Origin: Escherichia phage KKE7M
Length of the DNA stretch: 64,000 bases
Reading direction: 5' to 3' (one strand)
Sequence record: PQ356295.1
The notes beneath the pieces are model-generated. The model was not told the DNA's origin and did no database searches. It saw only the letters and a program-made list of their open reading frames with translations. Position numbers and translations under genes: made by a program. The stretch's first letter is position 1, and every line of letters begins with the position of its first letter. This document shows positions 61,044 through 63,439 of this stretch, piece by piece.

Positions 61044-61190
61044 ATGCTTTATGTTATTTGGGTAGATGAAGGGGATGGGTTTTATGTATACAAACACACT
61101 AACCATTGGCCCGATGTAGAAAAAGCACTTGCAACTTTTGAAGATTGCTTTTACGATATATATACAGACGAAGAGTATGAAGAGAATTGA
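61044..61190 (+). CDS. Small acidic protein (48 aa), not in ORF track
   Basis: ATG 7 nt after AAGGAGG; stop overlaps next start (TGATG). Confidence 0.45.
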   Translation: MLYVIWVDEGDGFYVYKHTNHWPDVEKALATFEDCFYDIYTDEEYEEN

Positions 61191-61549
61191 TGTGCGCTAC
61201 TAATCAACATGATATTTGTTACCAACCTCTTACCTGGATTGGTGAGGATCACTATGCTCAACGTGTTATAGTCTGCGCTGCGAATAAGTATATTCTCAAC
61301 AATGGCGAAGAGTTAATTATTCCTTGTGTTAGGCATGCAAATCCTGTACTATCTGCACAACTTAATGTTTTAAAAGATGCAGGATTGATCGATAAACTGT
61401 TTTGCTTACCTGATAATCAAGGGTTTATTGATCAGTATTATAATTGGTGGAGTCGCAAAGATGCTTATATCATTGCAGATAACGCCAAACAAATTAACTA
61501 TGAAAGAAATGGTCACGACAGTGAACTATTCAGCGAGGGATTATACTAA
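61190..61549 (+). CDS. Hypothetical protein (119 aa), first gene of the coupled RNA-repair operon
   Basis: ATG overlapping upstream stop; its stop overlaps the phosphoesterase start (TAATG). Confidence 0.5.
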   Translation: MCATNQHDICYQPLTWIGEDHYAQRVIVCAANKYILNNGEELIIPCVRHANPVLSAQLNVLKDAGLIDKLFCLPDNQGFIDQYYNWWSRKDAYIIADNAKQINYERNGHDSELFSEGLY

Positions 61550-62100
61550 TGTTTATTACAAGTGATTTGCATTTTATGCACAAACGTATTCGAGAGTTTG
61601 CTCCTGCATATCGCCCGTGGGAAGATATGGAGCATATGACAGAAGCCCTGATCGAAGCATGGAATAAATGTGCCACAACACCAGGAGTAAAGATGTACCA
61701 TCTTGGGGACTTCTGTTTCGGGACTGAAGAAGATACCCGTAAGATTGCTTCCCGTCTCCAAGGGGATATTACTTACTGTGTTGGGAACCATGATTACAGT
61801 AAACACAGAAAAGTGCTTGCAGAGTATGGAGAAGTGGTTTATTATGACGAAGTGAAATATCAGAAGCTGTTTTTCGTCTTAAGCCATTACCCTATGGCTG
61901 CCTGGAATAAACAAGGGCATGGATCAATCATGCTACACGGGCACTCTCATGGATCATTCCCTGATCATTTGTATGGGAAAATGTTGGATGTTGGTTGGGA
62001 CGCACACGGAAAAATCTTGCATTTTGACGAAATTATCTCTATTATGGATAAGCGTGATATTGTTGTTGTAGATCATCATAAGATAATCAAAGGAGATTAA
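61549..62100 (+). CDS. Calcineurin-like metallophosphoesterase
   Basis: Motifs DLHFMH, GDFCFG, GNHD, GHSHG (binuclear metallophosphoesterase signature). Confidence 0.75.
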   Translation: MFITSDLHFMHKRIREFAPAYRPWEDMEHMTEALIEAWNKCATTPGVKMYHLGDFCFGTEEDTRKIASRLQGDITYCVGNHDYSKHRKVLAEYGEVVYYDEVKYQKLFFVLSHYPMAAWNKQGHGSIMLHGHSHGSFPDHLYGKMLDVGWDAHGKILHFDEIISIMDKRDIVVVDHHKIIKGD

Positions 62101-62101
62101 G

Positions 62102-63034
62102 GTGGCTAAGTTCAACTGTGATGACCTGATTGCAAAAGGTTTAGTGCATAAAAAAGAAGTTAAATCTGGAGAGTATGCTGGTCTTGCTGTACTTAAATAC
62201 AAAAACAATGTATTCTGGGACAATTTGTGGGACGTAGACAAACGCCTTCTAGATTGTCGTGGGTTGGTTGTTGACTCAGAAGACAATGTTGTTATTTGGC
62301 CTTTTACTAAAATCTTTAATCGTTTTGAAAATGGTACAGATCTTCCAGCAGACCAACTTGTAGATGCTGTCCGTAAAGTAAACGGTTTTATGGCATCTGT
62401 AGGTGTGTACAAAGGGAAACTTGTTGTATCAACAACAGGGAGCCTAGAATCAGATTTTGCAATTATGGCAAAGAACCGTATTGTTTCCGAGTGTGACGAC
62501 ATAGAGTATTTCATTAAGTGGACAGAAAGTGCAAAAGCAACTTTTCTTTTTGAAATCTGTGATCCTTCTGATCCACATATTGTCGAAGAAGAACCAGGCG
62601 CGTACTTAATTGGAGCAAGAATTCAAAACCTGGATGGGACAAGTTTCATGTTACCTGAAGGTGTTCTTGATGGGATTGCATCTGTTACAAAGTTTAAACG
62701 TCCTGAAGTTTATCCGATGATTAAATTTTCAGATGTTGTTGAAATGTCTAAACATTGTAGACACGAAGGCTTTGTTGTTCGTGAAACAAACTATCCGTTT
62801 AACTTACTCTTAAAGATTAAGTCACCATACTATCTTGCTAAGAAGTTCCTTATGCGTGGTGGTAATAAGAAGTGGGATATGATTTGGGACAACCCAAACA
62901 ATGCTAAACAAATTGTTGACGAAGAATATTATACTTTGCTAGAATGGCTTCGAAATAATTTTACGAAGGTTCAATGGGCTGCTCTAGATTCACAAGAGCG
63001 ACGTAAAGAAATAGAAAACTTCTTTGGAGGCTAA
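62102..63034 (+). CDS. ATP-dependent RNA ligase (Rnl-type nucleotidyltransferase)
   Basis: GTG start; motif I-like KVNG, motif IV-like EGFVVRE, motif V-like LLKIKSP. Confidence 0.65.
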   Translation: MAKFNCDDLIAKGLVHKKEVKSGEYAGLAVLKYKNNVFWDNLWDVDKRLLDCRGLVVDSEDNVVIWPFTKIFNRFENGTDLPADQLVDAVRKVNGFMASVGVYKGKLVVSTTGSLESDFAIMAKNRIVSECDDIEYFIKWTESAKATFLFEICDPSDPHIVEEEPGAYLIGARIQNLDGTSFMLPEGVLDGIASVTKFKRPEVYPMIKFSDVVEMSKHCRHEGFVVRETNYPFNLLLKIKSPYYLAKKFLMRGGNKKWDMIWDNPNNAKQIVDEEYYTLLEWLRNNFTKVQWAALDSQERRKEIENFFGG

Positions 63035-63439
63035 ATGAAACAACTTATCATTTTACGTGGTGTTTCAGGCGCAGGTAAATCTACAGTAGCAGAAATTATT
63101 TCTGAAGGTTATTGGCCTATCTGTGAGGCAGATCAATATCATTACACAGAAAACGGTGTTTACGATTGGAAGCCAGAAAATGTAGGTAAAGCACACGCAT
63201 GGTGTCAGAGTATTGTTCGTGATGCTATGGCATCTAATATTAAAAAGATTATTGTCTCTAACACTTCAACCACAGAGAAAGAACTTAAACCTTATTTTAC
63301 TCTTGCTGAAGAGTTTGGTTATCAAGTTATCTCTTTAGTTGTTGAAAATAGGCACGGTAACGACTCAATTCATGAGGTTCCACAACATACTCGTGATCAG
63401 CAAGAGAAACGTCTTCGCAGTTCACTTAAGCTACAATAA
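63035..63439 (+). CDS. Polynucleotide 5'-kinase (T4 Pnk kinase-domain-like P-loop protein, no phosphatase domain)
   Basis: Walker A GVSGAGKST; IIVSNTST and LAEEFGYQV blocks parallel the T4 Pnk kinase domain; 134 aa. Confidence 0.65.
   Translation: MKQLIILRGVSGAGKSTVAEIISEGYWPICEADQYHYTENGVYDWKPENVGKAHAWCQSIVRDAMASNIKKIIVSNTSTTEKELKPYFTLAEEFGYQVISLVVENRHGNDSIHEVPQHTRDQQEKRLRSSLKLQ

Follow-up and report, generated by a model that had tools for sequence, protein, structure and literature searches.

Do the four closely packed genes near the end of a 64,000-nucleotide stretch of the Escherichia phage KKE7M genome (record PQ356295.1; the whole stretch is hereafter called the window) encode the means to repair broken RNA? 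RNA repair is a classic phage counter-measure to host anticodon nucleases, and a prediction made earlier from the DNA (the original prediction) had interpreted the four open reading frames (ORFs), here ORF1 to ORF4, as an operon for RNA end healing and sealing. We followed up this prediction with profile, fold, and gene neighborhood comparisons. Its core holds: the best reading of the cluster is a phage RNA heal-and-seal module composed of separate small proteins, to which we assign a probability of about 70%, because the protein family assignments, a linkage of the genes far above chance, and natural fusions of the kinase with the ligase all point to it.

The sealing role is predicted to belong to ORF3. 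The model PF09511 (RNA_lig_T4_1) matches ORF3 with 53.0 bits (gathering score, 28.3) over positions 2-227 of its 227. Although a single-sequence search of the PDB with ORF3 gave no matches, a family profile built from 21 homologs (49-85% identity) and run against all PDB sequences retrieved T4 Rnl1 (2c5u) as the sole match (E-value, 4.9e-10). Motifs I (K92-V-N94-G95), III (F150-E151), IV (E222-G223), and V (K238-x-K240) are invariant in the 21 homologs, and R53, K70, F72, K92-x-x-G95, F150-E151, E222-G223, and K238-x-K240 of ORF3 pair with the CRG, EKFF, TKEDG, FE, EGY, and KIKS elements of T4 Rnl1. The position of T4 Lys119, which we take to be essential in Rnl1, is occupied by an invariant threonine (Thr112). 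When the AlphaFold (AF2) model of ORF3 (predicted local distance difference test score, 89.8) was compared with known structures using Foldseek, the fungal tRNA ligase domain Trl1-LIG (9.7e-13) and T4 Rnl1 (4e-12) were the best and about equal matches, followed by Rnl3 (~1e-9 to 1e-10), Rnl2 and Rnl5 (~1e-5 to 1e-6), and DNA ligases (~1e-3 to 1e-5). ORF3 is 64 residues shorter than T4 Rnl1, and the sequence alignment of the two stops at about residue 241 of 310. Because the remaining C-terminal region, helical in the model (residues 242-307), does not align by sequence to the C-terminal domain of T4 Rnl1, a tRNA specificity of ORF3 cannot be inferred from this comparison. The profile and the model together place ORF3 among the ATP-dependent RNA ligases of the Rnl1/Trl1-LIG clade.

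The candidate 5'-end healing enzyme is ORF4, which matches AAA_33 with 40 bits (gathering score, 27) and, among the PHROG families, phrog_2071 (E-value, 4e-58) and phrog_505, 'polynucleotide kinase' (5.7e-9). A single-sequence PDB search with ORF4 yielded weak P-loop matches only. For the family profile (26 homologs), the best PDB match was Pnkp1 of the Capnocytophaga Pnkp1-Rnl-Hen1 system (4xrp, 5e-6), with two stand-alone RNA 5'-OH kinases of Mucorales in second and third place (9d8a, 6.4e-6; 9drz, 1.6e-5) and T4 Pnk (1ly1, 2.5e-4) and the kinase domain of CthPnkp (4gp7, 3.9e-4) further down. Apart from a designed P-loop protein, polynucleotide kinases outrank metabolite kinases in this search. 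Residues G12, G14, and K15 of the P-loop (G9-VSGAGKS-T17) are invariant, as is Asp33, which aligns with D35 of T4 Pnk (1ly1), the catalytic aspartate that activates the 5'-OH. The invariant Arg106 is the sole residue aligned to a lid arginine of T4 Pnk (R122). At the position of T4 Pnk D85 the ORF4 family has an invariant asparagine (Asn76), and at that of Arg38 either a histidine (His36) or an alignment gap; presumably, Arg38, Asp85, and the lid arginines Arg122 and Arg126 are all essential in T4 Pnk. ORF4 consists of the kinase domain only: the alignment covers residues 1-146 of T4 Pnk, and the 134 residues of ORF4 include no fused C-terminal HAD (DxDxT) 3'-phosphatase domain. Thus, ORF4 is a P-loop kinase that stands alone and is of the polynucleotide 5'-kinase type, with a predicted role in healing 5' ends. 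Because of the asparagine in place of D85, the histidine near R38, and the absence of the phosphatase domain, it represents a distinct family of small kinases and not an ortholog of T4 Pnk.

ORF2 belongs to phrog_547, 'phosphoesterase' (E-value, 4.5e-55). It scores 21 bits against Metallophos_2, below the gathering score of 27; a homolog from another phage locus (L247; loci compared in this work are designated by such numbers) exceeds the threshold of PF00149 (28.4 versus 21.5). In an alignment of 14 homologs (28-44% identity), the five metal motifs of the calcineurin superfamily, D6-x-H8, G53-D54, G79-N80-H81(-D82), H113, and G131-H132-x-H134, are invariant, and the family profile retrieves PDB entry 1xm7, the Aquifex structural genomics protein aq_1665, with an E-value of 6.5e-18. 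A specific relationship to lambda-Pase or Pnkp was ruled out beyond the shared motifs: no lambda-Pase or Pnkp phosphatase appeared in the PDB profile search at E-values up to 0.1, and hhalign aligned the ORF2 profile to lambda NinI with a probability of 5.2%, over motifs I-III alone. The signature of the family marks ORF2 as a putative calcineurin-superfamily binuclear metallophosphoesterase of the aq_1665 type, and we infer that it could serve as a 3'-end healing phosphatase for RNA. The family is widespread, with members in 1,323 phage records.

Two ORFs upstream of ORF1, and outside the interval 61190-63439 to which the original prediction was confined, lies a gene for a 113-residue protein that matches PF20274 (cREC_REC) with 52.5 bits (gathering score, 27; E-value, 7.9e-14). 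The cREC or 'cyclic-phosphate processing receiver' domain was defined by Iyer et al. in 2021, who predicted that it resolves RNA 2',3'-cyclic phosphate ends and noted its operonic linkage to RNA ligases (PMC7824862). It has been described as having a two-aspartate active site and is predicted to process also 1''-2'' cyclic ADP-ribose (ADPr) phosphate (PMC9503650). Residues D8, D9, D49, and D51 of the phage protein are invariant among four homologs. The protein is thus a predicted metal-independent opener of RNA 2',3'-cyclic phosphate ends. The module extends upstream to the cREC gene, which is a consistent member of it; the four-gene extent given in the original prediction is correct as to the positions of ORF1 to ORF4 and missed this gene. 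As a side observation, cREC genes 97% and 48% identical to that of the E. coli phage are found in records MG065689 (Campylobacter phage A110a) and MG065666 (A12a), respectively; both genomes have sizes like those of phi92 or rV5, and their Campylobacter host labels look doubtful.

We compared the neighborhoods of these genes across phages, starting from 80 viral contig loci that encode kinase homologs (40-76% identity), in which all ORFs were scanned with hidden Markov models (HMMs) of each family. The phosphoesterase is present within 5 kb of the kinase at 48 of the 80 loci, always co-directional and, at 15 of them, no more than 40 nucleotides (nt) away. The ligase is encoded at 29 loci, and all three genes co-occur at 21. 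With P, L, and K standing for phosphoesterase, ligase, and kinase, the gene orders include P-L-K, K-L-P, L-P-K, P-K-L, K-P, and P-K. At two loci (L107:4962-6254 and L160:4965-6260), the kinase and the ligase are naturally fused in single ORFs of ~431 codons, with the kinase at the N-terminus and an Rnl1-like ligase at the C-terminus; likewise, ORF4 matches the N-terminal part and ORF3 the C-terminal part of phrog_8238 (737 positions). Thus, the kinase, the phosphoesterase, and the ligase co-occur far above chance in diverse phages, and the combination of variable gene order, persistent linkage, and gene fusion is the classic signature of a functional module.

The cREC gene (C) shows the same tendency. 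All 11 usable loci anchored on cREC encode the phosphoesterase within 6 kb, and nine of them both the ligase and the kinase. Four arrangements were observed: C-X-P-L-K, as in the window; P-L-C-K, where 9-12 nt separate cREC from the kinase that follows it; P-K and L-C on divergent strands; and the reduced forms C-X-P and C-P. The reduced forms include L004/L251 (IMGVR_UViG_3300014004_000001), where cREC, the ORF1 homolog, and the phosphoesterase are kept and small unrelated ORFs take the place of the ligase and the kinase, and L245, which has cREC and the phosphoesterase only. At L247 (6770-10366), SIR2 (83.5 bits) comes directly after the kinase of the P-L-C-K set, and an ATP-dependent DNA ligase and a MazG-like (PRA-PH) protein come next.

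At the level of the individual enzymes, then, the original prediction fared well. An Rnl-type RNA ligase, a calcineurin-type phosphoesterase, and a Pnk-like P-loop kinase are what the family comparisons indicate; the kinase indeed lacks the HAD phosphatase that is fused to it in T4 Pnk, and neither profile nor fold searches assign ORF3 to the DNA ligases, which rank lowest in the Foldseek comparison. The statement that the phosphatase is of the kind found in bacterial Pnkp needs to be narrowed, given that PDB matches to lambda-Pase and Pnkp are absent and the hhalign probability is about 5%: it applies to the superfamily motifs and not to the Pnkp/lambda-Pase clade.

The following pathway is suggested by family membership and gene linkage. 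The cREC protein, ORF2, or both would open the 2',3'-cyclic phosphate at a break and remove the resulting 2'- or 3'-monophosphate to leave a ligatable 3' end; the Pnk-like kinase ORF4 would phosphorylate the 5'-OH; and ORF3, adenylylated on Lys92 of the KVNG motif, would pass the AMP to the 5'-phosphate and seal the break. The cluster of this phage lineage also encloses ORF1 and the 48-residue ORF that precedes it, neither of which is demonstrably part of the pathway. Likewise inferred are how cREC and the phosphoesterase would share their tasks, what the substrates would be (tRNA-Lys or others), and which host nuclease would be countered; the scenario of tRNA-Lys cut by PrrC is an analogy from T4. 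Should the ligase depend, like Trl1, on a 2'-phosphate, later removal of this phosphate by a phage sirtuin would be implied, as has been proposed (PMC9503650).

The genes themselves are well defined (Table 1). Escherichia phage EC_OE_11 shares 99.4% identity with the 2.5-kb stretch that contains them, and ~50 further phages share 95-99%, with another 66 records at 80-90%; at least 80% of the stretch is covered in 112 phage records. The relatives among the matches listed are mostly annotated Escherichia phages, including Justusliebigvirus (phi92-like, Stephanstirmvirinae) records, and the window belongs to a Justusliebigvirus phage. In the BASEL record MZ501100 (phage PaulScherrer), the coding sequence (CDS) boundaries are the same as those of ORF1 to ORF4, and ORF2, ORF3, and ORF4 are named 'putative phosphoesterase', 'RNA ligase', and 'polynucleotide kinase', respectively. 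With PHROG matches at E-values of 4e-47 to 9e-68, conservation among phages, and the PaulScherrer CDSs, the four ORFs are real genes; NCBIfam was uninformative for all four of their products.

Table 1 Genes and other features of the window discussed in the text
Feature	Position	Strand	Remarks
Fifteen tRNA genes	52360-55223	-	ARAGORN
Extra tRNA-like match	54871-54949		Rfam, 38.6 bits
NadV (nicotinamide phosphoribosyltransferase)	55971-57704	-	
Phosphoribosyl pyrophosphate (PRPP) synthetase	57776-58669	-	
cREC protein, 113 aa, GTG start	60693-61034	+	PF20274; CDS boundaries as in PaulScherrer bas60_0247
Acidic ORF, 48 aa	61044-61190	+	ORF list; hypothetical in PaulScherrer
ORF1, 119 aa from ATG, T4 Arn.3 family	61190-61549	+	
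ORF2, 183 aa, putative binuclear metallophosphoesterase, aq_1665-like	61549-62100	+	
ORF3, 310 aa, putative Rnl1/Trl1-LIG-clade RNA ligase, GTG start	62102-63034	+	
ORF4, 134 aa, putative stand-alone P-loop kinase	63035-63439	+	
Coiled-coil ORF, 106 aa	63449-63769	+	PHROG name 'hol-like chemotaxis'

The junctions between the genes are tight and of different kinds. Stop/start overlaps had been proposed to join all four genes; such an overlap exists between ORF1 and ORF2, which share one base (TAATG), whereas ORF2 and ORF3 are separated by a one-base spacer (TAA-G-GTG) and ORF3 and ORF4 abut with zero overlap (TAAATG). The 48-residue ORF and ORF1 also overlap by one base (TGATG), and the GTG start of ORF3 is located seven bases past AAAGGAG. 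The run of genes on this strand begins at ~59079, past a divergent intergenic region, extends beyond the end of the window, and is tightly packed at every gene. Scans of positions 58500-64000 for consensus promoters and terminators found no more sites than expected from shuffled sequences. Because of this packing throughout the run and the promoter and terminator counts at shuffled expectation, ORF1 to ORF4 are one section of a long run of co-directional genes and not a delimited operon, so the discrete operon of the original prediction has to be abandoned. The 106-residue ORF just past the kinase gene is a predicted coiled-coil protein with weak Pfam coiled-coil matches only, and its PHROG name looks like an annotation artefact.

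On the opposite strand, ~5.5 kb from the repair module, 15 tRNA genes predicted by ARAGORN form an array (Ile, Met x2, Leu x2, Phe, Pro, Gln, Gly, Thr, Asn, Tyr, Lys-UUU, and Ser x2). One tRNA-like match that ARAGORN did not call was added by Rfam, which missed two of the ARAGORN calls and found no RNA element besides tRNAs. Genes for NadV and PRPP synthetase, ~2 kb from the module and divergent from it, form a salvage pair for nicotinamide adenine dinucleotide (NAD+), which may bear on NAD+-dependent steps or on NAD+-depleting host defenses. The placement of the module near the tRNA array and the NAD+ salvage genes fits a counter-defense region directed against host attacks on translation.

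ORF1 is a member of phrog_839 and of the T4 Arn.3 family: in tblastn searches, it is 44-47% identical, over 94% of its length, to 'arn.3' products of T2, RB51, and other T4-like phages (E-values, ~1e-22 to 1e-23), and matches occur in 1,535 phage records, with T2 and T4 among the phages represented. The conserved unit of the family is a C-terminal domain of ~95 residues with the motifs CAA, RH, QGFxDQ, R..A, GQ, and, at the extreme C-terminus, an obligatory LFSExLY tail; R48, H49, S115, and E116 are invariant, and D81 and R89 nearly so. A fold is predicted confidently for the family, and no solved structure is related to it. ORF1 itself matches no known fold and lacks methyltransferase features, a single-sequence PDB search with it gave chance matches only, and no Pfam domain was detected in any of 10 longer proteins that end in an Arn.3 domain. 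A relationship to cREC was ruled out (hhalign probability, 0.2%). We also rejected the annotation 'anti-restriction nuclease' attached to some homologs as a carry-over from the neighboring T4 arn gene, because, according to a 2026 preprint, what arn.1 to arn.4 do is not known and the PDB search with ORF1 returned no Arn-annotated match. Three loci (L013, at 4247-4744 and 4830-5327; L186; and L211) carry two tandem or nearby copies of Arn.3-family genes. Neither PHROG nor Pfam has a match for the strongly acidic 48-residue ORF that separates ORF1 from the cREC gene.

Several observations weigh against a heal-and-seal module. No known RNA 3'-phosphatase is specifically similar to ORF2, the sole strong structural relative of which is an uncharacterized Aquifex protein, and the kinase family departs from T4 Pnk at the Asp85 and Arg38 positions. 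The cREC domain has been stated to be experimentally uncharacterized (PMC9503650). At 23 of the 80 kinase-anchored loci, many of them on short contigs, neither partner is found within 5 kb. Because the ligase and the kinase are missing from L251/L004 and L245, which retain cREC and the phosphoesterase, the latter two proteins may have a role of their own that does not involve the sealing enzymes. Finally, in the near-identical phage PaulScherrer, an ATP-dependent DNA ligase is encoded just past the end of the window, ~740 nt downstream of the kinase. The latter gene, together with the DNA ligase that follows the kinase-SIR2 pair at L247, would suit a role of the kinase and the phosphoesterase mainly in healing DNA ends (nicks with 5'-OH and 3'-phosphate) for the downstream DNA ligase, with the RNA ligase being incidental, and T4 Pnk is active on both DNA and RNA. 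We nevertheless consider such a role very unlikely, given that the kinase of L107 and L160 is fused to an Rnl1-type RNA ligase and not to a DNA ligase, that the structures closest to the ligase are those of tRNA ligases, and that the module travels with cREC, the predicted cyclic phosphate substrates of which arise only in RNA or in ADP-ribose derivatives. The reduced loci, for their part, would be compatible with a mixed anti-defense island in which cREC and the phosphoesterase primarily destroy immune signals, such as cyclic oligonucleotides or ADP-ribose-derived cyclic phosphates. The predicted action of cREC on 1''-2'' cyclic ADPr phosphate, the NAD+ salvage genes upstream on the other strand, and the wide distribution of the phosphoesterase family agree with this explanation, which we regard as unlikely in view of two facts: the phosphoesterase is the commonest immediate neighbor of the Pnk-like kinase, and in the P-L-C-K arrangement cREC is inserted between the sealing and the 5'-healing genes.

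The remaining question is whether ORF1 genuinely belongs to the repair machinery as a fourth or fifth subunit, perhaps as a modifier of RNA ends or an inhibitor of an anticodon nuclease, loosely comparable to Hen1 of bacterial Pnkp/Hen1. The one-base junction of ORF1 with the phosphoesterase gene, the retention of this pair where the ligase and the kinase are lost (L004/L251), and the invariant polar residues, which are suggestive of an active site, speak for such a subunit, as do divergent Arn.3-like genes that come immediately after the kinase in L106, L142, and L152, in the last case with a 7-nt overlap. We examined 80 viral loci anchored on Arn.3 (within 5 kb) and 80 anchored on the divergent subfamily (within 6 kb). 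The ligase, the kinase, and a close homolog of the phosphoesterase are all absent from 76 of the 80 Arn.3 loci; beyond that, one distant locus has the kinase, and a more sensitive phosphoesterase HMM added a weak match ~3.5 kb away in 10 loci, all from one lineage of ~157-kb phage genomes. In T4-like phages, arn.3 is located in the arn cluster. Around the divergent subfamily, a kinase or a phosphoesterase was found at only 20 of the 80 loci, many of them redundant, a rate little above that expected from the clustering of early genes, and the P-L-C-K relatives contain no Arn.3 gene. With these neighborhoods and the lack of a fold match or methyltransferase features, a dedicated repair subunit is improbable, and ORF1 is probably an interposed gene; the co-transcribed accessory of the original prediction is possible but unsupported. 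A more specific proposal, that ORF1 is a hitherto unrecognized enzyme or inhibitor that acts with the 3'-end-healing proteins, whether by modifying or shielding the RNA end after repair or by neutralizing an anticodon nuclease, we judge to be quite unlikely; if true, it would provide the first function for arn.3 and a new component of phage RNA repair. DNA-end healing, the destruction of immune signals, and ORF1 as a repair subunit are each less well supported than the heal-and-seal reading.

A heal-and-seal module of this kind would be of renewed relevance now that many newly found defense systems (PARIS, retron-PtuAB, Cas13, and PrrC/RloC) turn out to cut tRNAs. The window offers a compact, fully split version from phi92-, phAPEC8-, and rV5-like E. 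coli phages, including genetically tractable BASEL members, and the definition of the full gene set, with cREC included, has practical value for knockout and biochemical work. The uncharacterized families in the module are the mini-Pnk, the aq_1665-like phosphoesterase, and cREC.

One of the closest known systems is the tRNA repair pathway of T4, in which Pnk (PseT) and Rnl1 (gp63) counter PrrC. The window shares with T4 the motifs of an Rnl1-clade ligase, a related P-loop 5'-kinase, and the logic of healing followed by sealing. In contrast to T4, its kinase is stand-alone and has no HAD domain, 3'-end healing would fall to a metallophosphoesterase and cREC, the ligase is the shorter one, and the genes are contiguous. 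The bacterial Pnkp/Hen1 systems (Clostridium thermocellum Pnkp and Capnocytophaga Pnkp1-Rnl-Hen1) combine, as the window does, a kinase, a binuclear metallophosphoesterase, and an ATP-dependent RNA ligase, and the kinase profile finds its best solved match in Pnkp1. In the window, however, these activities would be distributed over three polypeptides in the order phosphoesterase, ligase, kinase, the ligase is Rnl1/Trl1-like, and the phosphoesterase is not detectably related to lambda-Pase or Pnkp beyond the shared motifs; PHROG and Pfam scans detected no methyltransferase family, and hence no Hen1, in any of the 14 ORFs of the plus-strand block.

The split tRNA splicing system of Mucorales (PMC10680797, PMC11571804) resembles the window in that healing and sealing are performed by separate proteins, with a sealing-only ligase and a stand-alone RNA 5'-OH kinase. 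The resemblance extends to the individual matches: 9d8a and 9drz follow directly after Pnkp1 in the kinase profile search, and Trl1-LIG is the top fold for the ligase. This system is eukaryotic, uses a 2H cyclic phosphodiesterase and Tpt1, and has neither the metallophosphoesterase nor cREC.

Among phages, Rnl1 and Rnl2 ligases are known to work together with polynucleotide kinases and phosphatases of the HAD, calcineurin-like, or HD type (PMC7824862). In rV5 and Mydo, a neighborhood was described that consists of a T4-like tRNA ligase, cREC, a nucleotide kinase, MazG, and, in some instances, a calcineurin-like phosphoesterase; this is the sirtuin-associated 'type 2' of Iyer, Burroughs, Anantharaman, and Aravind (2022, section 3.7.3; PMC9503650). 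L247 carries the full published set, including SIR2 and the MazG-like protein, and the RNA ligase of Proteus phage Mydo adjoins a cREC homolog. The window differs in its gene order (cREC, the 48-residue ORF, Arn.3, phosphoesterase, ligase, kinase, and not P-L-C-K), in the insertion of an Arn.3-family gene, and in that sirtuin and MazG genes are not adjacent: no SIR2 was found in its plus-strand block by PHROG and Pfam scans, and the sirtuin of PaulScherrer is encoded ~31 kb away, outside the window. Thus, the three enzymes are already named in GenBank and a system of this kind has already been described computationally for rV5-like phages (PMC7824862, PMC9503650); specific to the locus analyzed here are the phi92-type arrangement and its three uncharacterized families of small proteins.

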